Virus genome (UHGV): UHGV-0072595
Reading direction: 5' to 3' (one strand)
Source: a virus
DNA: 18,059 nucleotides
In this document: piece by piece, positions 5,230-16,089 of the stretch
How the letters are laid out: every line of letters begins with the position of its first letter
Numbering within the stretch: the stretch's first letter is position 1
Made by a program: the position numbers and the translations under genes
The notes under the pieces: generated by a model
Told to the model about the DNA's origin: nothing
The model's input: the letters and a program-made list of their open reading frames with translations, nothing else
Database searches by the model: none

Positions 5230-5664
5230 TTATTCTTGTTCTCTGGTCAAATTATATAGTTGGAAAACAAGGATGCATATATGAATGAACGATGCAGAGG
5301 CAATGCCGATGGCGATAGTGGGTATCATGTAGCCGCTTATGCTGGAAAGAAGCAATAACCCGCAGAAAAACAAAGCTCCAAGCTCAACAAAACTAAGGGC
5401 ATAGACAATAACTACCGATGTCATATACCCATACTCTCTAATCTTGGCCAGTCGGCGCGTTCTGCTTCCGATTAGAAACGTCAAGGCAGCAATCAGGATT
5501 GCAATCATGGTTCCTGCATATGATGACAATGTCGCCCCAAGACCATCTCTATGAGCTGAAAAAGAAACACCAGGAATGTAGTGGCGGAAAAGGAGATAGC
5601 AAATGCTTACGATAACGTAAGGAATTATTACTATGTAAACACCAGGCATGATTCTGTTCCGCAT
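5230..5664 (-). CDS. rexB: RexB (membrane component of the Rex abortive-infection/exclusion system, 144 aa)
   Basis: Track ORF; multi-pass hydrophobic protein of the right size immediately downstream of rexA as in lambda. Confidence 0.9.
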   Translation of the reverse strand: MRNRIMPGVYIVIIPYVIVSICYLLFRHYIPGVSFSAHRDGLGATLSSYAGTMIAILIAALTFLIGSRTRRLAKIREYGYMTSVVIVYALSFVELGALFFCGLLLLSSISGYMIPTIAIGIASASFIHICILVFQLYNLTREQE

Positions 5665-5679
5665 AATTACTCCTGATAA

Positions 5680-6519
5680 TTAATCCTTAACTTTGCCCAC
5701 CTGCCTTTTAAAACATTCCAGTATATCACTTTTCATTCTTGCGTAGCAATATGCCATCTCTTCAGCTATCTCAGCATTGGTGACCTTGTTCAGAGGCGCT
5801 GAGAGATGGCCTTTTTCTGATAGATAATGTTCTGTTAAAATATCTCCGGCCTCATCTTTTGCCCGCAGGCTAATGTCTGAAAATTGAGGTGACGGGTTAA
5901 AAATAATATCCTTGGCAACCTTTTTTATATCCCTTTTAAATTTTGGCTTAATGACTATATCCAATGAGTCAAAAAGCTCCCCTTCAATATCTGTTGCCCC
6001 TAAGACCTTTAATATATCGCCAAATACAGGTAGCTTGGCTTCTACCTTCACCGTTGTTCGGCCGATGAAATGCATATGCATAACATCGTCTTTGGTGGTT
6101 CCCCTCATCAGTGGCTCTATCTGAACGCGCTCTCCACTGCTTAATGACATTCCTTTCCCGATTAAAAAATCTGTCAGATCGGATGTGGTCGGCCCGAAAA
6201 CAGTTCTGGCAAAACCAATGGTGTCGCCTTCAACAAACAAAAAAGATGGGAATCCCAATGATTCGTCATCTGCGAGGCTGTTCTTAATATCTTCAACTGA
6301 AGCTTTAGAGCGATTTATCTTCTGAACCAGACTCTTGTCATTTGTTTTGGTAAAGAGAAAAGTTTTTCCATCGATTTTATGAATATACAAATAATTGGAG
6401 CCAACCTGCAGGTGATGATTATCAGCCAGCAGAGAATTAAGGAAAACAGACAGGTTTATTGAGCGCTTATCTTTCCCTTTATTTTTGCTGCGGTAAGTCG
6501 CATAAAAACCATTCTTCAT
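5680..6519 (-). CDS. rexA: RexA (sensor component of the Rex system, 279 aa)
   Basis: Track ORF MKNGFYATYRSKNKGKDKRSINLSVFLNSLLADNHHLQ...; matches lambda RexA as I recall it; cotranscribed with cI. Confidence 0.9.
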   Translation of the reverse strand: MKNGFYATYRSKNKGKDKRSINLSVFLNSLLADNHHLQVGSNYLYIHKIDGKTFLFTKTNDKSLVQKINRSKASVEDIKNSLADDESLGFPSFLFVEGDTIGFARTVFGPTTSDLTDFLIGKGMSLSSGERVQIEPLMRGTTKDDVMHMHFIGRTTVKVEAKLPVFGDILKVLGATDIEGELFDSLDIVIKPKFKRDIKKVAKDIIFNPSPQFSDISLRAKDEAGDILTEHYLSEKGHLSAPLNKVTNAEIAEEMAYCYARMKSDILECFKRQVGKVKD

Positions 6520-6631: not shown

Positions 6632-7348
<717 letters not shown>

Positions 7349-7355
7349 TTAAATC

Positions 7356-7421
7356 TATCACCGCAAGGGATAAATATCTAACACCGTGCGTGTTGACTAT
7401 TTTACCTCTGGCGGTGATAAT
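7356..7421. promoter_or_regulatory. Right operator region: OR3 (7356-7372), OR2 (7379-7395), OR1 (7403-7419) with divergent pRM (leftward) and pR (-35 TTGACT 7393-7398, -10 GATAAT 7416-7421)
   Basis: Operator sequences TATCACCGCAAGGGATA, TAACACCGTGCGTGTTG, TACCTCTGGCGGTGATA read directly; these are the lambda OR sites. Confidence 0.9.
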
Positions 7422-7436
7422 GGTTGCATGTACTAA

Positions 7437-7646
<210 letters not shown>

Positions 7647-7653
7647 ATAACCC

Positions 7654-7685
7654 CGCTCTTACACATTCCAGCCCTGAAAAAGGGC
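7654..7685 (+). promoter_or_regulatory. nutR (boxA CGCTCTTA 7654-7661; boxB GCCCTGAAAAAGGGC 7671-7685)
   Basis: Exact lambda-type boxA/boxB motifs downstream of cro. Confidence 0.85.
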
Positions 7686-7764
7686 ATCAAATTAAACCAC
7701 ACCTATGGTGTATGCATTTATTTGCATACATTCAATCAATTGTTATCTAAGGAAATACTTACAT

Positions 7765-8043
7765 ATGCAACTTACAAGTACTCGCAAGAAAGCGAATGCA
7801 ATTACAAGCAACATCCTGAATCGAATTGCTGTACGTGGTCAGCGAAAGGTTGCCGACGTGTTAGGGATTAATGAATCGCAAATTTCGCGATGGAAAGACA
7901 GCTTTATCCCAAAGATGGCCATGCTTCTGGCTGTGCTGGAATGGGGTGTTGAAGACGAGGAGTTGGCGGAACTGGCTAAGCAAGTAGCCAGAATGCTGAC
8001 AAAAGAAAAAGCCCCGAAGAACGGCGAATTCTTCGAGGCCTGA
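7765..8043 (+). CDS. cII: cII-like transcriptional activator (about 92 aa; non-lambda allele)
   Basis: Track ORF 7705..8043 trimmed to ATG 7765 (AAGGA SD; same leader as lambda cII). Shares ...[20 protein letters not shown]... with lambda cII but differs elsewhere. Confidence 0.8.
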
Positions 8044-8077
8044 TGTAGAAAGACTGGATCAATCCACAGGAGTAATT

Positions 8078-8224
8078 ATGACAAAACAACTCAGTCCTTA
8101 CCAGGACAAAATTCACAAACACATACTACGTGATCGCTTCCTGTCCAGCTTCAAGCAGCCTGGTCGATTCCGGGCTGAGTTGGAAAAAGTGAAGCTGATG
8201 CAGAAGGAGAAAGGTCATGAGTAA
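8078..8224 (+). CDS. Small basic hypothetical protein (48 aa) between cII and the O-like gene
   Basis: Hand translation [48 protein letters not shown]; AGGAG SD 6 nt upstream; stop overlaps the O-like start region. Confidence 0.4.
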
Positions 8225-9077
8225 TCTTGCAACCGTAACACATTTAAGGCCTTCACAACGGCCTGTGGAGCGTCGTGTGGCAGAAGTTGAAGATGGTTAT
8301 ACCCGTCTTGCAAATGCCCTGTATGAAGAGCTTATCGGCGCAGATTTAACGAAAAATCAGAGCAAGGTTGCCCACGCCATATGCCGTAAAACATACGGCT
8401 ACGGTAAAAAGATGGATCGCATCTCTGATAGTCAGTTAGCTCAAATTACCAGGCTGCCAAGACAGAAGGTAAACAAGGCCAAGAATGAGCTTATCGCGAT
8501 GAAGGTTATCCTTCGCGAAGGCCAGCAAATCGGGCCTAACAAGAACATCGAGGAATGGCAAATCGAAGGGTGTCACTACTCTGGTGATAATGTCACTGCA
8601 TTGGTGACAAAAAGTGTCACCAAAACGGTGACAGCGCTGTCACCAAAACAGGGACACACAAAAGAAACTATTACAAAAGAAAAAAGAAATAATAAAAACA
8701 CTATGTCCGAAAGTGTTCGGACGGAGTGTGAAAAATCACATGACCGTCACGAAGAAACCGACAAGGCATTCGAGGAAATATTCTGGTGTGCAGGCATGCG
8801 GAAAGCCGGGAAGAAAAACGCAGCTTCGGCATTCAGAACACAGTTCAGGGAATGGCGTAAAACTACCAGGGGGACGGCAAGCGAGTTTGCCACGATGCTG
8901 GCAGAAGACATCGCATGCAGGAATGGTAAGCAGTTCGGATTCGACAGGTTGTTACCATCGAGCTACCTGAACGGTCAACGCTGGAACGACGAAAAGCCAG
9001 AAACCATTCAACCACAATCCAAACCATCATCCGCAATCACCGTATCGAAAACTGGCTACGTGTTTTTCGACAGGTGA
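8217..9077 (+). CDS. Replication initiator, lambda O-like N-terminal iteron-binding domain with a divergent C-terminal domain (286 aa)
   Basis: Track ORF; N-terminus shares the O-family pattern DDGYxRL...ADLTKxQxKV...RKTYGxxKxMDRIxDSQL...GPNKNIxEW with lambda O; gene contains its own iteron/AT-rich origin. Confidence 0.85.
8582..8700. repeat. Replication origin inside the O-like gene: three to four iterons built on GGTGACA/TGTCACC inverted half-sites (about 8582-8650) followed by an A-rich region
   Basis: Direct reading: ctGGTGAtaaTGTCACtgca, ttGGTGACAaaaagTGTCACCaaaac, GGTGACAgcgcTGTCACCaaaac, then acaaaagaaactattacaaaagaaaaaagaaataataaaaac. Confidence 0.7.
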
Positions 9078-9080
9078 ACC

Positions 9081-9188
9081 ATGAAATCAAAAATCAAATC
9101 GCTACTGGTCGCTGGTTATAACCACGGCTGGTTAAGTATTTCGTTTGTCGATTTCTGGTTTAAAAATCTCAATCTGAGGGAATCATGA
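9081..9188 (+). CDS. Possible small coupled ORF (35 aa) between the O-like gene and the primase-helicase
   Basis: Hand translation MKSKIKSLLVAGYNHGWLSISFVDFWFKNLNLRES; start 4 nt after the O stop; stop overlaps the primase-helicase ATG (ATGA). Confidence 0.3.
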   Translation: MKSKIKSLLVAGYNHGWLSISFVDFWFKNLNLRES

Positions 9189-11065
9189 CGCCAAGTGAAC
9201 TTAGCGACCTGCTTTGGGCGCAGGTTGACAGGGTGGCTCCGCACCTGTTGCCAAACGGCAAGAAAGAGGGGCATGAGTGGGTTGCCGGTAACATCAACGG
9301 TGACAAGGGAAACAGCCTTAAGGTCAACCTTAGCGGCAAGAAAAAATGGGCTGATTTCGCTGAGGGAGACGGCGGTGACATGCTTGATTTGTGGATGGCA
9401 TGTCGTGGAATTAACCTGCATCAGGCTATGCAGGAAGCGAAAGCATTTCTCGGTATCAAGGATGACGATCACCATTTCGATGCCAGACGTGAGAAAAAAT
9501 TCTCCAGACCTGATCGCAAGAAAATCGCCCGCTACGTTACCAGAACAGAATCCCATCTTGAGTACCTGCAATCGCGTGGCATATCGCCAGAAATCGTAAA
9601 GCGCTACGAGGTTGTCAGCGGCAAGGTGTGGAATGGAGAGCGGGAACTGGATGCTCTGGTGATTCCGTACAAACGCGATGGTGAGTTGTTGCAGGTCAAG
9701 CGAATCAGCACTGAGCGCCCGGACGGGAAGAAAGTCATTATGGCAGAAGGTGATTGCGAACCTTGTCTGTTCGGATGGCAGGCTCTGGACGCTGGCGTGA
9801 GGGCGGTTGTACTTTGCGAAGGCGAAATTGATTGTATGAGCTATGCGCAATACGGCATCTCGGCGTTATCCGTACCGTTTGGTGGAGGGAAAGGCGCTAA
9901 GCAACAGTGGATTGAGTTTGAGTATCACAACCTCGACAGGTTTGAGGAAATATTCATCTCGATGGACGTTGATGATGTTGGTCGTGAAGCCGCAAGGGAA
10001 ATCGCAAGCCGACTCGGTGAACATCGTTGCCGTCTTGTTACTCTGCCGTACAAAGACATCAACGAATGCCTGATGAACGGTGTTACCGAGGATGCAATCT
10101 GGCAGTACATCGGCACGGCATCCTACTTTGATCCTGAAGAACTCTACAGCGCGCGAGAGTTTTACCAGGACACTATCAACGCTTTCTACGGCAAGCAGCA
10201 GTATCTGTTTAATCCACCGTGGGAATCTCTGGCAGATAAATTCCAGTTCCGTGAGGCCGAGTTGACGCTGGTCAATGGTGTGAACGGTCACGGAAAAACG
10301 GAGGTTGTCGGGCATATGGCACTTGAGGCAATGCGTCAGGGTGTGAAGACGTGCATCGCGTCACTTGAGCTGAAGCCTGGTATTCTCCTTAAGCGCCTTA
10401 CCCGTCAGGCAACGTGCTGCAAGATGCCGCCAGTGCTGGAAATTGACTCTGCATTTAAATTTTATGACGAAAGACTTTGGGTGTTTGGCCTGACCGGAAC
10501 GGCGAAAGCCGACAGGCTGATCGAAATATTCGACTACGCTCGCCGCCGATACGGGATCCAGTTATTCATCATCGACAGCCTGATGAAATGTGGCATAGGC
10601 GACGATGACTATAACGGGCAGAAGGCGTTTGTTGACTCGATTTGCGACTTCAAAAACAAAACAAACTCCCACGTCATTCTCGTTACTCACTCGCGAAAAG
10701 GAGACAGCGAAGAAAAACCAACCGGGAAAATGGACGTAAAAGGCTCTGGAGCGATAACAGACCTGACAGACAACCTTTTCATCATCTGGCGTAACAAGGC
10801 TCGCGAGAGAGCGTTACAGAGAGTTCAGAGTGGTGAAAAGATGTCAGAGAAGGACGAACAGGTACTGGCGTCTCCGGCATCTGTTTTGATGCTTGAAAAA
10901 CAACGAAACGGCGAAGGTTGGGAAGGTGGTGTCCCGTTGTTCCTTGACGAGCAATCGCACCAGTTCCTGCAACTTGAATCAGGATCGCCATATAGCTACA
11001 TCGCCAATATGCCGAAATCGGAATATGACGAGGCGTGGCGACAGGAAAACGTGACGGAGTATTAA
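9185..11065 (+). CDS. Bifunctional DNA primase-helicase (N-terminal primase/Toprim-like region, C-terminal DnaB/RecA-like helicase), replaces lambda P (626 aa)
   Basis: Track ORF; acidic Toprim-like motifs (CEGEIDCMS, MDVDDVGRE), Walker A NGVNGHGKTE and Walker B-like LFIIDSLMK in the C-terminal half. Confidence 0.8.
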   Translation: MTPSELSDLLWAQVDRVAPHLLPNGKKEGHEWVAGNINGDKGNSLKVNLSGKKKWADFAEGDGGDMLDLWMACRGINLHQAMQEAKAFLGIKDDDHHFDARREKKFSRPDRKKIARYVTRTESHLEYLQSRGISPEIVKRYEVVSGKVWNGERELDALVIPYKRDGELLQVKRISTERPDGKKVIMAEGDCEPCLFGWQALDAGVRAVVLCEGEIDCMSYAQYGISALSVPFGGGKGAKQQWIEFEYHNLDRFEEIFISMDVDDVGREAAREIASRLGEHRCRLVTLPYKDINECLMNGVTEDAIWQYIGTASYFDPEELYSAREFYQDTINAFYGKQQYLFNPPWESLADKFQFREAELTLVNGVNGHGKTEVVGHMALEAMRQGVKTCIASLELKPGILLKRLTRQATCCKMPPVLEIDSAFKFYDERLWVFGLTGTAKADRLIEIFDYARRRYGIQLFIIDSLMKCGIGDDDYNGQKAFVDSICDFKNKTNSHVILVTHSRKGDSEEKPTGKMDVKGSGAITDLTDNLFIIWRNKARERALQRVQSGEKMSEKDEQVLASPASVLMLEKQRNGEGWEGGVPLFLDEQSHQFLQLESGSPYSYIANMPKSEYDEAWRQENVTEY

Positions 11066-11094
11066 ATGACCATCTACATCACTGAGCTTGTAAC

Positions 11095-11126
11095 AGGCCT
11101 GCTGGTAATCGCAGGCCTTTTTATTT
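11095..11126 (+). terminator. Intrinsic terminator after the replication genes (8-bp perfect stem CAGGCCTGC/GCAGGCCT plus U-tract), tR2-like position
   Basis: Direct reading caggcctgctggtaatcgcaggcctttttattt 30 nt after the primase-helicase stop. Confidence 0.65.
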
Positions 11127-11141
11127 GGGGGAGAGTAAATC

Positions 11142-11348
11142 GTGGTTGAGTTTATGCTCGTCGCACTCAAATGCGTTGGCGTTGGATGGATTCTTCTGAC
11201 GTTTTTTATTGTTCTGCATAGCTACATTCGCCTTGTGAATGACGGTAAAGATCCATGGTATACGTTGTTTGGCGCTGCATTTGTCTGGGTGATTATCGGT
11301 GTTATGCCTGTCGCTGTAGCAAAAATGGCGTGGCGTTTTGTGAGTTGA
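11142..11348 (+). CDS. Small two-helix membrane protein (68 aa from GTG; 64 aa if ATG 11154)
   Basis: Track ORF; GGGGGAGAG SD upstream of the GTG; two hydrophobic segments (GVGWILLTFFIVL and LFGAAFVWVIIGVMPVAV) separated by a short polar loop. Confidence 0.55.
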   Translation: MVEFMLVALKCVGVGWILLTFFIVLHSYIRLVNDGKDPWYTLFGAAFVWVIIGVMPVAVAKMAWRFVS

Positions 11349-11365
11349 ACTGAGGGTAAGTATCG

Positions 11366-11686
11366 ATGGACGAATCAAGAAAGCAGTTTGAAGAAAGTTG
11401 GTTGCGACGTGGAGGCGAATCTTCAGACCTTATCCGTTACCCTGAAAATCACCATGAAATTGGCAGTGGTGATATTGGTGGTCAATACGTGATGGACGAT
11501 GTTCAAGGCCACTGGCAAACGTGGCAGGCATCGCGAGCAGCTATTGAAATAACCGCGCCAAAGTTTATCGACAGCAGAGAAGCATTAGCCAAAGGGTTTA
11601 CTGTTGATTATTCCAATGGCTTCGGTGATGCAATGGATGCTTATGAGGAAAACATCCGCGCTGCTGGAGTCAAAGTGAAGGAGTGA
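11366..11686 (+). CDS. Hypothetical protein (106 aa)
   Basis: Track ORF; same-strand operon context; no family recognised. Confidence 0.55.
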   Translation: MDESRKQFEESWLRRGGESSDLIRYPENHHEIGSGDIGGQYVMDDVQGHWQTWQASRAAIEITAPKFIDSREALAKGFTVDYSNGFGDAMDAYEENIRAAGVKVKE

Positions 11687-11688
11687 GT

Positions 11689-11853
11689 ATGAGCGCATAC
11701 GAAGAAATCATGTTAGCCCTGCGATTCTTTTTCGGTGTGGAAGAAGATGAAAACGTAAATGAGATTATCGGGCAAGACCATGACCCGATAGGGACTATTG
11801 CAGCTGCACTTGACGATTACAGGAGTGTAAATGGTGAGGAAACTAACGTTTGA
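11689..11853 (+). CDS. Small acidic hypothetical protein (54 aa), 3' end overlaps the ninB start by 23 nt
   Basis: Hand translation MSAYEEIMLALRFFFGVEEDENVNEIIGQDHDPIGTIAAALDDYRSVNGEETNV; AAGGAG SD at 5 nt. Confidence 0.4.
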   Translation: MSAYEEIMLALRFFFGVEEDENVNEIIGQDHDPIGTIAAALDDYRSVNGEETNV

Positions 11854-12274
11854 ACTAAGAAGCCCCATCCATCAGCAGAACGCCATTCAAGCTATCCAGC
11901 AAATTCTTCCAGACCCAACCAAACCAATCGTAGTAACCATTCAGGAACGCAACCGCAGCTTAGACCAAAACAGGAAGCTATGGGCCTGCTTAGGTGACGT
12001 CTCTCGTCAGGTTGAATGGCATGGTCGCTGGCTGGATGCAGAAAGCTGGAAGTGTGTGTTTACCGCAGCATTAAAGCAGCAGGATGTTGTTCCTAACCTT
12101 GCCGGGAATGGCTTTGTGGTAATAGGCCAGTCAACCAGCAGGATGCGTGTAAGCGAATTTGCGGAGCTATTAGAGCTTATACAGGCATTCGGTACAGAGC
12201 GTGGCGTTAAGTGGTCAGACGAAGCGAGACTGGCTCTGGAGTGGAAAGCGAGATGGGGAGATCGGGCTGCATGA
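11831..12274 (+). CDS. ninB: NinB (Orf family recombination mediator, 147 aa)
   Basis: Track ORF MVRKLTFELRSPIHQQNAIQAIQQILPDPTKPIVVTIQERNRSLDQNRKLWACLGDVSRQVEWHGRWLDAESWK...; matches lambda NinB as I recall it. Confidence 0.9.
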   Translation: MVRKLTFELRSPIHQQNAIQAIQQILPDPTKPIVVTIQERNRSLDQNRKLWACLGDVSRQVEWHGRWLDAESWKCVFTAALKQQDVVPNLAGNGFVVIGQSTSRMRVSEFAELLELIQAFGTERGVKWSDEARLALEWKARWGDRAA

Positions 12275-12798
12275 CTATCAAATCAAATACGCCAGCACAC
12301 GACAAGGACTGCTGGCAAACGCCGCTTTGGCTTTTTGATGCACTGGATATTGAGTTTGGATTCTGGCTGGATTCGGCAGCGAGCGACAAAAATGCTCTGT
12401 GTGCTCACTGGCTAACTGAGGCCGACGACGCGCTCAATTCTGAGTGGGTAAGCCACGGTGCAATCTGGAATAACCCACCGTACAGCAATATCAGGCCGTG
12501 GGTGGAAAAAGCCGCTGAGCAGTGCATACAACAGCGACAGACGGTAGTTATGCTTGTGCCAGAGGATATGTCAGTCGGATGGTTCAGCAAGGCTCTGGAG
12601 AGTGTCGACGAAGTTCGCATCATCACTGATGGACGGATTAATTTTATCGAACCATCGACAGGGCTGGAGAAGAAGGGAAACAGCAAAGGCTCCATGCTGC
12701 TGATTTGGCGACCGTTCATCAGTCCTCGACGGATGTTTACTACCGTATCCAAAGCGGCATTGATGGCGATCGGGCAGGGCGTCAGGAGGGCGGCATGA
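12271..12798 (+). CDS. Phage DNA N6-adenine methyltransferase (Dam family; motif WNNPPYSN), about 175 aa
   Basis: Track ORF 12211..12798 trimmed to ATG 12271 (ATGA overlap with ninB stop); NPPY catalytic motif of N6-adenine/N4-cytosine MTases; small size and no adjacent restriction enzyme. Confidence 0.8.
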
Positions 12799-12971
12799 GG
12801 CGACAGCGACGAAGTTTCACCGACATCATCTGCGAAAACTGCAAATACCTTCCAACGAAACGCTCCAGAAATAAACGCAAGCCAATCCCAAAAGAATCTG
12901 ACGTAAAAACCTTCAATTACACAGCTCACCTGTGGGATATCCGGTGGCTAAGATATCGTGCGAGGAAATGA
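12795..12971 (+). CDS. ninE: NinE (58 aa)
   Basis: Hand-trimmed from track ORF 12705..12971; [58 protein letters not shown] matches lambda NinE as I recall it; ATGA overlap with the MTase stop. Confidence 0.8.
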
Positions 12972-13393
12972 CAATGGATTATTCACAGTTAAGTGATTTT
13001 GAAATTAACAGACGAGTATGTGAGGCTTTAGATATGGAGGAGCATTTCTTCATACCTGATGACGAAGCAGACTTCGATTCTGAGATCCCCACTGACGAAA
13101 GAGGTCCTATTTGGCAGACGCAAAAAAGGGATATTAATGGCTTCCGTTCTTCAAACGGGAATTGCTTCAATCCTTGCAATAATCCTGAATACGCGTGGCC
13201 AATTATCACTGAAAGCAAAATCAGCACTATGTGGATGACAGCGGAAAAAGAATGGTGCGCATGGTCAGGAGGTGATTTAGAGGAAGGTTGTTGGGAATGG
13301 GAAAATATTCCTGGCTACTACTTCTGTGGCGAATCGCCTCTCCGCGCCGCCATGATTGTCTTTCTCATGATGCAGGACGCTAATAATGCTTAG
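12968..13393 (+). CDS. NinX-position protein, Cys/Trp-rich, unknown function (about 141 aa)
   Basis: Track ORF 12932..13393 trimmed to ATG 12968 (ATGA overlap with ninE stop); sits between ninE and ninF where P22-type nin regions carry ninX. Confidence 0.5.
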
Positions 13394-13562
13394 TCCATCC
13401 CAATCTCTTCAATACCAGAAAGAAAGCGTCGAGCGAGCTTTAACGTGCGCTAACTGCGGTCAGAAGCTGCATGTGCTGGAAGTTCACGTGTGTGAGCACT
13501 GCTGCGCAGAACTGATGAGCGATCCGAATAGCTCAATGTACGAGGAAGAAGACGATGAATGA
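13386..13562 (+). CDS. ninF: NinF (58 aa, Cys-rich)
   Basis: Hand translation [58 protein letters not shown]; matches lambda NinF as I recall it. Confidence 0.8.
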   Translation: MLSPSQSLQYQKESVERALTCANCGQKLHVLEVHVCEHCCAELMSDPNSSMYEEEDDE

Positions 13563-14277
13563 GTTAATAAATGGCAATGCCATCAAAATGACAAGCATTG
13601 AAATCGCTGAGTTGGTGGGTAAGCGTCATGACAATGTGAAACGTACCATCGAAACGCTGGCTAAAAATGGTGTTATCCGGCTTCCTCAAATTGAGGTTTC
13701 CGAAAGAATCAATAACTTAGGGTTCAATGTTCAGTACGAGCATTACGTCTTCGAGGGCGAACAAGGTAAGCGAGACAGTATTGTCGTTGTTGCCCAGTTG
13801 TCGCCAGAGTTCACCGCTCGTCTTGTTGACCGTTGGCGAGAGCTTGAAGAAACTGCGGTTAATATCCCCAAAACGCTACCAGAAGCATTGCGCCTTGCTG
13901 CTGATCTTGCTGAGCAGAAAATGCAACTGGAAAACCAGCTCGCAATTGCCGCACCTAAAGTTGAGTTTGCCGATCGCGTTGGCGAGGCCAGTGGAATTTT
14001 GATTGGAAACTTTGCAAAGGTTGTTGGTATTGGTCCGAACAAACTGTTTGCGTGGATGCGCGATCACAAAATCCTTATTGCTTCAGGTTCCCGGCGCAAT
14101 GTGCCAATGCAGGAATATATGGATCGCGGCTATTTCGCAGTGAAAGAAACAGCGGTCAACACAAATCACGGAATACAGATATCGTTCACCACAAAAATCA
14201 CCGGGCGTGGTCAACAGTGGCTGACCAGAAAGCTGCTCGATAACGGAATGCTGAAAGTAACAGGGGAGGCTGCTTAA
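13555..14277 (+). CDS. Roi/Rha-like phage regulatory protein with antirepressor (KilA-C-like) C-terminal region (240 aa)
   Basis: Track ORF; N-terminal MTSIEIAELVGKRHDNVKR motif typical of lambdoid Roi/Rha proteins; assignment from memory of family patterns. Confidence 0.6.
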   Translation: MNELINGNAIKMTSIEIAELVGKRHDNVKRTIETLAKNGVIRLPQIEVSERINNLGFNVQYEHYVFEGEQGKRDSIVVVAQLSPEFTARLVDRWRELEETAVNIPKTLPEALRLAADLAEQKMQLENQLAIAAPKVEFADRVGEASGILIGNFAKVVGIGPNKLFAWMRDHKILIASGSRRNVPMQEYMDRGYFAVKETAVNTNHGIQISFTTKITGRGQQWLTRKLLDNGMLKVTGEAA

Positions 14278-14567
14278 TGGCTAACCTACGCAAAGAAGCG
14301 CGCGGCAGAGAATGCCAGGTACGTATTTACGGCGTATGCAATGGTAATCCTGAAACTACAGTTCTGGCACATTACCGGATGGCTGGAATTTGCGGAACTG
14401 GAATGAAGCCTGACGACCTGATCGGCGCATGGGCTTGTAGCGCGTGTCACGATGAAATCGACCGACGCACAATGATTCTCGACAACAAAGACGCCAGACT
14501 TTACCACCTCGAAGGCGTGATCAGGACGCAGGCGATACTGCTGAAGGAGGGGAAGATTAAGCCATGA
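14277..14567 (+). CDS. YbcO-like (DUF1364) Cys/His-rich putative zinc-binding nuclease (96 aa)
   Basis: Track ORF; conserved CxVR...C...HxR...C...CSACH arrangement; immediately upstream of rusA as in the E. coli DLP12 prophage. Confidence 0.6.
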   Translation: MANLRKEARGRECQVRIYGVCNGNPETTVLAHYRMAGICGTGMKPDDLIGAWACSACHDEIDRRTMILDNKDARLYHLEGVIRTQAILLKEGKIKP

Positions 14568-14926
14568 ACGAATATCAGTTTGTGCTTCCATACCCGCCGT
14601 CGGTGAACACCTACTGGCGAAGACGGGGAAGCCAATACTACATCAGCGATAAAGGCCAGAAATACCGAAAAGACGTTCAGCAAATCATCCGCCAACTCAA
14701 GTTAGACATTTTCACCAAATCACGACTCCGCATCAAAGTCATCGCAGACGTTCCAGACTCCCGCCGCCGCGACCTCGATAACATCCTGAAAGGTTTACTC
14801 GATTCCCTTATCCACGCCGGATTTGCGGAAGACGACGAGCAATTCGATGACATTCGCGTAATTCGTGGTGTGAAAGTACCAGGCGGACGGCTTGGAATAA
14901 AAATCACCGAACTGGAGAACGCATGA
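14564..14926 (+). CDS. rusA: RusA Holliday-junction resolvase (120 aa)
   Basis: Track ORF; LPYPPSVNTYW... N-terminus and DxRRRDLDN catalytic motif characteristic of RusA. Confidence 0.9.
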   Translation: MNEYQFVLPYPPSVNTYWRRRGSQYYISDKGQKYRKDVQQIIRQLKLDIFTKSRLRIKVIADVPDSRRRDLDNILKGLLDSLIHAGFAEDDEQFDDIRVIRGVKVPGGRLGIKITELENA

Positions 14927-15111
14927 ACGCCACAATTCAAACGATACCAGAGCTTCTTATCCAGACACGAGGCAATCAGACCGAAGTGGCTAGGATGCTT
15001 TCCTGCGCAAGAGGAACAGTGCTCAAGTACAACCGAGACAGCAAAGGCGATCGTCACGTAATAGTTAACGGCGTCCTGATGGTCAAACAGGGAAAGAGGG
15101 GAAGACGATGA
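14923..15111 (+). CDS. ninH: NinH-like protein (62 aa)
   Basis: Track ORF; ...GNQTEVARMLSCARGTVLKY... matches the NinH HTH-like core; ATGA overlaps on both sides. Confidence 0.75.
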   Translation: MNATIQTIPELLIQTRGNQTEVARMLSCARGTVLKYNRDSKGDRHVIVNGVLMVKQGKRGRR

Positions 15112-15626
15112 GCATAAGAGAACTAAACCTCACCAAAGAACAGCATGAGTGGCTGAATGGCTGGCTTGAACTGTGGGGCGCATGGGTTTATTCAGGTCGT
15201 CTGGAAAAGCGCATGAGCAGCGTAATAGCGAAGTTCATGGAGAGCGTAGAGCCGGGAAGAGTTATGACAAGGCCAATGTGTAATGATGATGATGGAATGT
15301 TGATTTCTCAGGTCGTCGATTCCGTCATGTACATTGACAAGAAAGCCTTTGGCATCCTCCTCAGCTACTACGCTCATGGTTCATCTAAGCGAGCAATTGC
15401 ATCCTACTATCACGCGACTGCAAAGCCACGCAAGATGTGTGGACGTGGTGGCGAGGGATGGAGAAAACCTTCACTGGCAACCTGTAGAAACGAAATTGAC
15501 GACATCCTGAAAGCGTCATTATTTGTTTTGTACCAACCAATGCAAAATGCTTTCAAAATGCGTAAACGTGTTGAGAAAGTTAAGCATGTTGCTGTTAAAA
15601 ACCTTGACATGCAATTAGCCATTTAG
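15108..15626 (+). CDS. Q: Late antiterminator Q (non-lambda type, 172 aa)
   Basis: Track ORF; last gene of the nin operon, immediately upstream of a pR'-like promoter, terminator hairpin and the lysis cassette; pattern WGAW...P.C.DDD resembles phage 21/82-type Q proteins (from memory). Confidence 0.7.
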   Translation: MSIRELNLTKEQHEWLNGWLELWGAWVYSGRLEKRMSSVIAKFMESVEPGRVMTRPMCNDDDGMLISQVVDSVMYIDKKAFGILLSYYAHGSSKRAIASYYHATAKPRKMCGRGGEGWRKPSLATCRNEIDDILKASLFVLYQPMQNAFKMRKRVEKVKHVAVKNLDMQLAI

Positions 15627-15633
15627 CCATAAT
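15604..15633 (+). promoter_or_regulatory. Candidate late promoter pR' (-35 TTGACA 15604-15609, 18-bp spacer, -10 CATAAT 15628-15633), overlapping the Q stop
   Basis: Hexamers read directly; position relative to Q and downstream terminator fits the lambdoid late-control architecture. Confidence 0.5.
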
Positions 15634-15644
15634 TAGAGGGTAAG

Positions 15645-15689
15645 CTGCCGTTAGTGACTCTTAAGTTGCAACGGTGGCTTTTTTTATTT
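15645..15689 (+). terminator. Terminator-like imperfect hairpin followed by a U-rich tract (TTTTTTTATTT), candidate tR'
   Basis: ctgccgtt...aacggtggc stem with G-U pairs and an extended inner stem, then U-tract, directly downstream of the putative pR'. Confidence 0.45.
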
Positions 15690-15764
15690 GGGTCAGTCGT
15701 ATAAAGGTCATTACGGAAGGCTGTTAACCTTCTTATCGTGGTTCGAGTCCACGCTGTCCCGCCA
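15690..15764 (+). tRNA. tRNA-Asn(GUU)-like gene with encoded CCA; atypical (one U-U mismatch in the acceptor stem, weak D-stem)
   Basis: Manual fold: acceptor GGGTCAG/CTGTCCC, anticodon stem GAAGG/CCTTC with loop CTGTTAA, T-arm CGTGG-TTCGAGT-CCACG, discriminator G, CCA. Confidence 0.5.
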
Positions 15765-15769
15765 AATAT

Positions 15770-15845
15770 GCTGGTTTAGCTCCAATGGTAGAGCAGTCGC
15801 CTTGTAAGCGAATGGGTAGCGGTTCAAGTCCGTTAACCAGCACCA
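15770..15845 (+). tRNA. tRNA-Thr(UGU) gene with encoded CCA
   Basis: Manual fold: perfect 7-bp acceptor GCTGGTT/AACCAGC, D-arm GCTC-CAATGGTA-GAGC, anticodon loop CTTGTAA, T-arm AGCGG-TTCAAGT-CCGTT, discriminator A, CCA. Confidence 0.65.
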
Positions 15846-16089
15846 TAACTGAGCCGTAGCCACTGGCTATCCTGAATTCATCAGTGATAGTTACGCTGCG
15901 GCCTTCTACACATGACCTTCGTGAAAGCGGGTGGCATGAGGTTGCGCTAACAACCTCCTGCCGTTTTGCCCGTGCATATCGGTCACGAACAAATCTGATT
16001 ACTAAACACAGTAGCCTGGATTTGTTCTATCAGTAATCGACCTTATTCCTAATTAAATAGAGCAAATCCCCTCAATGAAGGGGTAGAGC

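Follow-up and report, generated by a model that had tools for sequence, protein, structure and literature searches.

In this work we analysed a window of 18,059 nucleotides, the whole available stretch of the UHGV virus genome UHGV-0072595, with attention to three small genes (ORF1, ORF2 and ORF3) that lie between its replication genes and ninB. These genes are ordinary and already known, and do not make up a new defence or toxin module, because they occupy a slot where related phages routinely exchange optional genes. As the best explanation of the locus as a whole, we consider it likely that the cluster is the point at which a mosaic E. coli prophage enters the nin (delayed-early) part of its rightward pR operon. 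The prophage combines a lambda-type immunity region carrying rexAB, a replication module with a toprim primase-helicase, and P22-type late genes; family searches and annotation identify N, cI, rexAB, an O-like gene, NinB, NinX, RusA and Q in the window. About 690 bp containing three catalogued ORFans are inserted at a site where, in lambda and P22, ninB follows tR2 directly. The features concerned are the following.

7393–7421, + strand: pR-like promoter, TTGACT-17-GATAAT (consensus scan only).
9185–11065, + strand: toprim primase-helicase, 626 aa, the final replication-module gene (Pfam Toprim_2, AAA_25 and DnaB_C; phrog_239, E=4e-171).
11066–11149, + strand: ninA mini-ORF, 27 codons, MTIYITELVTGLLVIAGLFIWGRVNRG, enclosing the terminator (translation; phrog_5907, E=1e-18).
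11095–11126, + strand: intrinsic terminator, lambda tR2 (scan and RNA fold; stem 11095–11102/11111–11118, loop 11103–11110, U-tract 11119–11126).
11127–11135, + strand: Shine–Dalgarno (SD) sequence GGGGGAGAG (alignment, sequences).
11142–11348, + strand: ORF1, 68 aa, small membrane protein with two predicted transmembrane (TM) segments, phrog_1165, GTG start (profile match, hydropathy).
11366–11686, + strand: ORF2, 106 aa, acidic and largely helical, Phage_phiTE_015 family (PF26207, phrog_343).
11689–11853, + strand: ORF3, 54 aa, pI 4.05, phrog_1603 (E=1.5e-32), overlapping the ninB start.
11834–12274, + strand: ninB (Orf recombination mediator), first conserved nin gene past the variable slot (Pfam NinB, E=2.4e-54).

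tR2 is among the best-studied intrinsic terminators, and the mini-ORF around it has had a name since the 1980s. An earlier note on this DNA had described a hairpin with an 8-bp perfect stem and a U-tract at this place, which scan and RNA fold confirmed: the stem arms, AGGCCTGC and GCAGGCCT, enclose a loop of 8 nt, and the hairpin begins 29 nt past the primase-helicase stop codon (TAA, 11063–11065). The hairpin GGCCUGC-UGGUAAUC-GCAGGCC, followed by UUUUUAUUU, is the same in lambda, P22, H-19B, HK022 and mEp235, and in an alignment of the window with lambda, H-19B, HK022 and mEp235 the hairpin, the U-tract and the downstream SD are invariant. The annotations of P22 and mEp235 place a terminator at this site, and standard transcription templates use the identical sequence as their terminator. 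Both the name tR2 and its location within NinA come from PMC4824070, where lambda tR2 lies 30 bp past the NinA AUG and has a termination efficiency of ~0.9. Given its identical sequence and an N gene in the window, the tR2 of the window would be expected to terminate in vivo and to be overridden by N. The hairpin, U-tract and downstream SD form a unit that is base-for-base the same as in lambda and P22 and sits in the same place, past the last replication-module gene, but the gene 5' of it is the toprim primase-helicase in the window, ren in lambda and gp12 in P22. Moreover, the SD GGGGGAGAG, which ends six nt 5' of the GTG at 11142, belongs to ORF1 here, whereas in lambda and P22 it is the SD of ninB. 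Of 80 related loci, ~74 have the order replication module–tR2/ninA–ninB, and among them the replication module is of three kinds.

In its original sense ninA is the ORF of 26–27 codons that spans tR2 in lambda and P22, and the start site of lambda NinA is functional in vivo (PMC4824070). This ORF, which the earlier note had missed, is present in the window at 11066–11149 and is the same as P22 ninA (34673–34753, annotated as overlapping the terminator) and lambda ninA (at about 40.6 kb). The NinA peptides of lambda, P22 and the window are near-identical, those of P22 and the window being identical up to residue 23, and the window has in common with lambda an AUG placed 29–30 nt 5' of the hairpin and a stop codon past the U-tract (PMC4824070). 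The last four codons differ (RVNRG in the window versus RGKS or RGKT in lambda and P22), because the downstream junction joins ninA to ORF1 and not to ninB; likewise, the ninA stop (TGA, 11147–11149) overlaps the GTG start region of ORF1, whereas in lambda and P22 it forms an ATGA with ninB. A mosaic junction lies exactly at the ninA ATG, which is found behind at least six different upstream contexts. The "ren/ninA position" proposed earlier for the cluster is correct as to the interval, from P or the replication genes to ninB, but the genes follow ninA and replace neither ren nor ninA. Similarly, the cluster is terminator-flanked, as had been claimed, on its 5' side but not on its 3' side, where there is no terminator because ORF3 overlaps ninB.

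The three ORFs described before ninB, encoding a 68-aa protein with two hydrophobic segments, a 106-aa protein and a 54-aa acidic protein preceded by an AAGGAG SD, were all confirmed in place. Each has a full-length PHROG family match (E 1e-30 to 1e-39) and length-conserved homologues, and the annotated frame gives the lowest pooled dN/dS (0.46, 0.66 and 0.21 for ORF1, ORF2 and ORF3, respectively, against 0.8–2.9 in the other frames), so that on these sequence criteria ORF1–3 are real genes, beyond chance. Hundreds of sequenced lambdoid phages and prophages carry these genes, and the families of all three are already catalogued in PHROG and Pfam, which gives them little weight as a discovery. 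No paralogue of any of the three was found elsewhere within the window.

ORF1 matches phrog_1165 over residues 1–68 of 68 (E=1.7e-39), and its homologues fall into 61 clusters, nearly all of 68 aa. Its two hydrophobic blocks (Kyte–Doolittle 19-residue maxima of 2.3–2.4), predicted to be TM segments, are separated by an RLVNDGKDP loop; the short GKD loop is strongly conserved in the family and the C-terminal segment IG..PVA.AKMAW.F is invariant. The family is small and limited to enterobacterial lambdoid phages, and an exhaustive profile search of 1.84 billion proteins returned 25 representatives, all of them small unannotated phage proteins. ORF1 is 97% identical to the HK620 "ninA" protein and 53–60% identical to the HK022/Stx-phage type (HK022 gp58, Stx2-86 orf69); all of these have 68 aa, two TM segments and a position directly 3' of tR2, with no material difference from ORF1. 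"NinA" in public records denotes two unrelated proteins: phrog_1165 proteins carry the label in HK620, SPN9CC and HK630, where it is a misnomer, and ORF1 has no similarity to the true 26-aa NinA of lambda and P22. Two candidate features of ORF1 were rejected. A T4SS_pilin match in a Pfam scan of 34 homologues was sub-threshold (best E 0.0015) and reflects two-TM composition noise, and the number of terminator-like sites such as the one inside ORF1 (11178–11203, 3 GC pairs) is within chance expectation.

ORF2 is related to phiTE_015 by BLASTP (E=1e-10) and by hhalign (98.8%), PF26207 is present in all 120 listed ORF2 homologues, and PGAP names a protein identical to ORF2 "phiTE_015 family"; a local Pfam scan of ORF2 gave no match, possibly because that copy is without the PF26207 model. 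With other members of the family (Sf6 gene 48, HK022 gp59 and Pectobacterium phage phiTE_015), ORF2 shares an SRxQFEEW N-terminus, a W..W.ASRAAIEI centre and an AG.KVK C-terminus, as well as small size, acidity, helical character and an origin in phage early regions. N- and C-terminal halves are combined in many mosaic ways in this family, and the allele in the window represents one of them. A profile of ORF2 found no match among the sequences of solved structures. The C-terminus of ORF2 weakly resembles P22 EaD (hhalign probability 32%).

The phrog_1603 match of ORF3 spans residues 1–53 of 54, its homologues form 24 clusters, and its SD (11678–11683) lies 5 nt 5' of the ATG. The AF2 model has three helices (pLDDT 81) and no match in the PDB by Foldseek. 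ORF3 is 91% identical to BTP1_048, also of phrog_1603, and both overlap the ninB start; BTP1_048 is preceded by four other small genes, making five in the tR2–ninB slot of BTP1, whereas ORF3 in the window is preceded by ORF1 and ORF2. The ninB gene starts at GTG 11834 (PGAP) or ATG 11831, and its overlap with ORF3 is about 20 nt.

We compared 212 related loci, in samples anchored on ORF1 (80 loci), ORF3 (52 loci) and ninB; these 212 loci are phylogenetically non-independent and the co-occurrence counts are descriptive only. The claim of a hotspot for exchangeable accessory genes in the interval from the replication genes to ninB was borne out, as the slot between tR2 and ninB is empty in 25 of the 61 tR2-bearing loci of the ninB-anchored sample and, where filled, has any of more than 20 lengths. 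At its 5' end, tR2 lies directly upstream of ORF1 (80 loci) under any replication module, whether P22 gp12, primase-helicase or lambda P with ren. ORF1 is followed by an ORF2-family gene in ~66/80 loci (two ORF2 paralogues in 7) and by ORF3 in 4/80, and it adjoins ninB directly, with a gap of 14–20 nt and neither ORF2 nor ORF3, in 11/80. In the ORF3 sample, ORF1 is present in 17 loci and absent from 35, and an ORF2-family gene accompanies ORF3 in every one of the 17 loci with ORF1 and in 26 of the 35 without it (74%). ORF1, ORF2 and ORF3 assort independently: they are separately exchangeable genes and not a co-dependent module. The tR2–ninB junction forms a clearly delimited cassette slot, whose 5' boundary is fixed and consists of tR2 and its SD. 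What is gained here is a set of corrections and clean negatives that concern the labelling of NinA, the cassette slot and the independent assortment of its genes.

The pR-like site lies between a cI-like repressor gene (6632–7345, − strand) and a cro-like ORF (7446–7646) and is the sole strong sigma-70 match on the + strand upstream of the cluster. In the interval 7000–16000 the only other promoter-like sites on this strand were a weak one at 9067, upstream of the primase-helicase gene, and a pR'-like one past Q; between 9094 and 15264 a simple consensus scan, which weak or non-sigma-70 promoters would escape, found no sigma-70-like site. We infer that the pR-like promoter drives the cluster. 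Since ORF1–3 have no promoter-like site of their own and are placed behind tR2, N-dependent expression in the lytic phase, and not in the repressed prophage, would be expected, a timing taken from the simple consensus scan and the lambda precedent, to which leaky read-through in the lysogen would be invisible. pR transcripts that pass tR2, by N antitermination during infection or induction and by a small leak, would carry the three genes. Their translation may proceed as a tightly packed and possibly coupled chain, given the overlap of the ninA stop with the ORF1 start, the ORF2 stop located 2 nt 5' of the ORF3 ATG and the overlap of ORF3 with ninB. ORF1 would then form a two-TM hairpin in the inner membrane, ORF2 would be a soluble acidic protein and ORF3 an acidic three-helix protein, each probably acting alone as a dispensable accessory protein of the lytic phase. 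Judged purely from position and from the absence of alternatives, host takeover or counter-defence is their most likely role. A counter-defence or exclusion role for any of the three, if true, would be the first function assigned to its family, as none of these families now has one. More speculatively, there is a slim chance that ORF1 is a new kind of membrane effector of the lytic phase, acting once N opens tR2, alone or with the Phage_phiTE_015 protein; such an effector could for example keep rival phages out or counteract an abortive-infection system that works at the membrane.

Small membrane proteins are frequent among the known exclusion proteins, and SieA, SieB, Rex and Cor-type functions act in the repressed lysogen. 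The earlier note had seen in the cluster a superinfection-exclusion or toxin-antitoxin-like module, a proposal that finds no support in the independent assortment, in the consensus scan, which showed no sigma-70-like promoter of the cluster's own, or in Pfam, NCBIfam and PADLOC, which gave no relevant family match; the homology and structure searches yielded no similar fold and no family of toxins, antitoxins, exclusion or defence proteins. Nor did the literature searched, on phiTE_015, PF26207 and exclusion or anti-defence in the nin region, yield a functional study of any of the three families. It is unlikely that ORF1 by itself is a superinfection- or membrane-acting exclusion protein, which would block DNA entry or otherwise exclude phages, either through leaky expression in the lysogen or during the lytic cycle in the manner of T4 Imm. 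Like T4 Imm and P22 SieA it is a small membrane protein, with its two predicted TM segments, conserved GKD loop and C-terminal motif, and it is located in an accessory hotspot, whose first slot can instead be taken by a cassette that also encodes a membrane-anchored protein (phrog_5903). But SieA, SieB and Imm have no sequence similarity to ORF1–3, Sie genes have prophage promoters of their own whereas none was detected for this cluster, a gene placed behind tR2 in the pR operon should be silent in a repressed lysogen, and the ORF1 family is tiny and limited to its enterobacterial lambdoid phages.

Ren, the function for escape from Rex exclusion, is encoded in the same general region of the lambda pR operon as ORF1–3 and has no sequence similarity to them. 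A tblastn search of the window with lambda Ren found no homologue (best E=2.1), while the same query finds Ren in other loci. The idea that ORF1–3 substitute for Ren in a phage that bears rexAB and lacks ren was rejected: Ren and ORF1 occur together in some loci, hence ORF1 is not a replacement for Ren, and RexB, encoded in just 2 of the 60 loci sampled (1 of the 12 with ORF1 and 1 of the 48 without it), is not associated with ORF1.

A little less probable than exclusion by ORF1 is that ORF1 and ORF2 work as a pair in the lytic cycle, a membrane anchor with its soluble partner. This would fit the frequency with which an ORF2-family gene follows ORF1, including all 17 such loci of the ORF3 sample, and the organization of a distant ORF1 relative, P0215, whose next gene is a PF26207 member that overlaps it by 4 nt. 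In other distant relatives, however, the PF26207 gene is absent or several genes away, ORF1 is also found without ORF2, the ORF2 family is about as common in ORF3 loci that lack ORF1, and it is widespread in phages without ORF1, among them lytic phages such as phiTE, as well as Pseudomonas and Aeromonas phages. We give still less credit to the notion that ORF3 assists NinB/Orf as an accessory factor, for instance as an acidic modulator of the mediator or of its interactions with SSB or ssDNA. Its strong acidity and confident three-helix model are compatible with such a role, and ORF3 directly precedes and overlaps ninB in 46/52 loci, including some in which NinB is only 42–43% identical to that of the window. 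Yet this linkage may be a matter of position alone, since the junction falls within the opening codons of ninB; moreover, most ninB-bearing phages are without ORF3 (65/80 loci), and an ORF3-like domain is encoded between nrdD and nrdG in Klebsiella lytic myoviruses, with no ninB nearby. Finally, a toxin-antitoxin-like module in which ORF2 and/or ORF3 would neutralise a membrane toxin, ORF1, is very improbable: the layout, a small hydrophobic protein and then small acidic soluble ones in tight succession, is all that recalls such a system, and the comparative data argue strongly against it, since three ORFans that assort independently do not fit a toxin-antitoxin design, ORF1 reaching ninB with neither partner in some loci and ORF2 and ORF3 doing without ORF1 in lytic phages and in the majority of ORF3 loci, while the consensus scan showed no autoregulated promoter and no toxin or antitoxin family was matched. 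The same independent assortment provides a clear basis for single-gene tests.

Three catalogued accessory genes (ORF1, ORF2 and ORF3, together the cluster) lie here behind the well-known tR2/ninA unit, in the interval between tR2 and ninB, which is established as a variable slot in lambdoid phages. Nothing in the structure or organisation of the region is unusual, and its DNA occurs in identical form in sequenced E. coli genomes. The layout described in the earlier note, a hairpin after the primase-helicase, three ORFs and then ninB, is correct in order and coordinates:

9185-11065, + strand, toprim primase-helicase of 626 aa, whose stop precedes the terminator
11066-11149, + strand, ninA ORF of 27 codons (MTIYITELVTGLLVIAGLFIWGRVNRG), from translation and a phrog_5907 match
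11095-11102 and 11111-11118, + strand, perfect 8-bp stem of the terminator hairpin, with a loop of 8 nt and a U-tract ending at 11126
11142-11348, + strand, ORF1, 68 aa, GTG start, Shine-Dalgarno (SD) sequence GGGGGAGAG 6 nt upstream, phrog_1165
11366-11686, + strand, ORF2, 106 aa, pI 4.8, phrog_343, Pfam PF26207 (Phage_phiTE_015)
11689-11853, + strand, ORF3, 54 aa, pI 4.05, AAGGAG 5 nt upstream, overlapping ninB, phrog_1603
start at 11831/11834, + strand, ninB, Pfam NinB E=2e-54

ORF1, ORF2 and ORF3 are real genes, as shown by a full-length match of each to a single PHROG family (E 1e-30 to 1e-39), by homologues of conserved length for all three, and by a pooled dN/dS that is lower in the frame annotated for each (0.46 for ORF1, 0.66 for ORF2 and 0.21 for ORF3) than in shifted frames (0.8-2.9).

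By its sequence the window terminator is lambda tR2, which standard in-vitro transcription templates employ as their terminator. In an alignment of the window with lambda, H-19B, HK022 and mEp235, the hairpin, the U-tract and the downstream GGGGGAGAG are invariant; in lambda this sequence is placed between ren and ninB, and the P22 record lists its equivalent as a terminator 'similar to phage lambda'. The 27-codon ninA ORF over the hairpin, absent from the earlier note, has exactly the geometry reported for lambda, where the NinA AUG lies 30 bp before tR2 and the stop 16 bp after it (PMC4824070). Lambda tR2 terminates with an efficiency of about 0.9, reduced by only about 10% through translation of NinA, the start site of which is 'not weak' (PMC4824070). 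P22 ninA is an annotated 26-codon gene overlapping the terminator (34673-34753), and between its codons 2-10 and those of the window there are four substitutions, all synonymous. In lambda, the stop of ren and the start of ninA overlap in an ATGA, and the ninA stop codon likewise overlaps with the ATG of ninB. Among 38 sequence variants of the region, at least six distinct upstream contexts are all joined exactly at the ninA ATG, and the ninA stop is kept as TGA or TAA even with variable overlapping codons 2-3 of ORF1. In one IMG/VR locus (L020) the 5' arm and loop of tR2 are tandemly duplicated (21 nt), which retains the ninA frame (…GLLVIAGLLVIAGLFIW…) and would make alternative hairpins possible. 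The description of the cluster as terminator-flanked holds only on the 5' side, where tR2 lies; at the 3' end there is no terminator, and ORF3 extends into ninB.

The three genes belong to catalogued, functionally uncharacterised families. The ORF1 protein, which has two hydrophobic blocks, occurs in 107 phage records and shares 97% identity with the protein that the HK620 record calls 'ninA' and 53-75% with HK022 gp58 and with proteins of Stx phages and Salmonella P22-like phages. ORF1 is unrelated to the true 26-aa NinA of lambda and P22, so that the 68-aa two-TM protein is wrongly named 'NinA' in the HK620 (NC_002730, 12384-12581), SPN9CC and HK630 records. With 61 clusters at 90% identity and just 25 representatives in a set of 1.84 billion proteins, the ORF1 family is very small; its distant members, of 63-66 aa, retain GWM in TM1, VNxGxDP in the loop and PVxxVKFAW at the C-terminus, and their genes lie in the early or the replication region of other temperate phages. 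A protein identical to ORF2 is named 'phiTE_015 family' by PGAP, and ORF2 is 30% identical to phiTE_015 (hhalign probability 98.8%). PF26207 is precomputed on every ORF2 homologue listed; a Pfam scan of ORF2 itself returned no family, and the Pfam copy scanned may lack this model. The ORF2 family, found in lambdoid, siphoviral, Klebsiella, Yersinia, Pectobacterium, Pseudomonas and Aeromonas phages, is mosaic, with exchangeable segments between conserved N-terminal, central (WQASRAAIEI) and C-terminal (AGIKVKE) motifs. The N- and C-terminal halves of the Phage_phiTE_015 gene recombine independently around the WQASRAAIEI segment, and some loci carry two tandem paralogous copies. The ORF3 family comprises 24 clusters, and BTP1_048 is 91% identical to ORF3.

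A simple consensus scan for promoter-like sites on the + strand between 7000 and 16000 gave, apart from a pR'-like promoter after Q, only the following:

7393-7421, + strand, pR-like promoter, TTGACT-17-GATAAT
9067-9094, + strand, weak promoter-like site upstream of the primase-helicase
15264-15293, + strand, weak promoter-like site (9/12 match) inside the Q gene

Together with the other genes of the window (N, a lambda-type repressor, rexA, rexB, an O-like gene, NinX, RusA and Q), these sites place the cluster inside the pR delayed-early operon, behind tR2. Its genes are closely packed (the start of ORF1 overlaps the stop of ninA, 2 nt separate ORF2 from ORF3, and ORF3 runs into ninB), which agrees with the interlinking of the nin genes in a chain, noted long ago (PMC8022706). 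Apart from leakage through tR2, the cluster would be transcribed only when N takes RNA polymerase past this terminator, in infection or induction. Prophage exclusion genes of the classical kind are expressed while the prophage is repressed, and the superinfection-exclusion module proposed in the earlier note therefore fits this position poorly; it also lacks homology support. The computational evidence would nevertheless be compatible with ORF1 being an exclusion protein that acts in the lytic phase.

Three sets of IMG/VR loci were compared, one built on close ORF1 relatives (80 loci), one on ORF3 relatives (52) and one anchored on ninB (80); as these loci are not phylogenetically independent, all counts are descriptive. 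In the ORF1 set tR2 lies directly upstream with any replication module (P22 gp12, primase-helicase, or lambda P plus ren), and ORF1 is followed by an ORF2-family gene in about 66 loci, by two ORF2 paralogues in 7, directly by ninB in 11 (gap 14-20 nt) and by ORF3 in only 4. ORF3 immediately precedes ninB in 46 of the 52 loci of its set, a linkage that is tight even where NinB alleles share 42-43% identity, although an ORF3-like domain in a Klebsiella myovirus without ninB counts against it. Only 17 of these 52 loci carry ORF1. An ORF2-family gene accompanies it in all 17, and ORF1-ORF2 adjacency is seen again in one distant ORF1 relative; against such a pairing, the slot contains an ORF2-family gene almost as often when ORF1 is absent (26/35). 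Of the 61 ninB-anchored loci with tR2, 25 have an empty slot, like lambda and P22, and the filled slots of this set have more than 20 different lengths; the BTP1 slot holds five small genes. A different cassette with the same SD and GTG start (L093, 2221-2744) encodes two proteins, first one of 108 aa with an N-terminal TM segment (phrog_5903) and then one of 66 aa (phrog_7185) with a weak match to a transcription regulator, and is present in 19 of the 80 ninB-anchored loci. Judging from these loci, the slot is hypervariable with a fixed 5' boundary, which bears out the suggestion of a hotspot of exchangeable accessory genes. ORF1, ORF2 and ORF3 are therefore separately exchangeable occupants and not a co-dependent unit. 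A toxin-antitoxin-like module, also suggested earlier, fails on obligate co-occurrence, the key comparative test, and has no support from homology.

That the cluster substitutes for Ren in a rexAB-carrying phage lacking ren was rejected, Ren and ORF1 being found together in some loci. Of 60 sampled loci only 2 have RexB, which shows neither enrichment in the loci that carry ORF1 nor a statistical link with ORF1, ORF2 or ORF3 in this sample. The window carries lambda-type rexA and rexB (5230-6519, - strand); ren is missing, with no Ren homologue found in the window, because the replication module is of the primase-helicase type.

A NinX-family gene (153 aa, 12932-13393) is missing from the otherwise very similar AF46 prophage, so that the two are identical over the cluster and differ by one cassette farther along the nin region. 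The interval 15604-15845 contains a strong pR'-like promoter (TTGACA-18-CATAAT, 11/12) at the end of the Q gene, followed by two tRNA genes in a placement that resembles that of Stx-type lambdoid phages:

15690-15764, tRNA-Asn, directly after the pR'-like promoter
15770-15845, tRNA-Thr, next after tRNA-Asn
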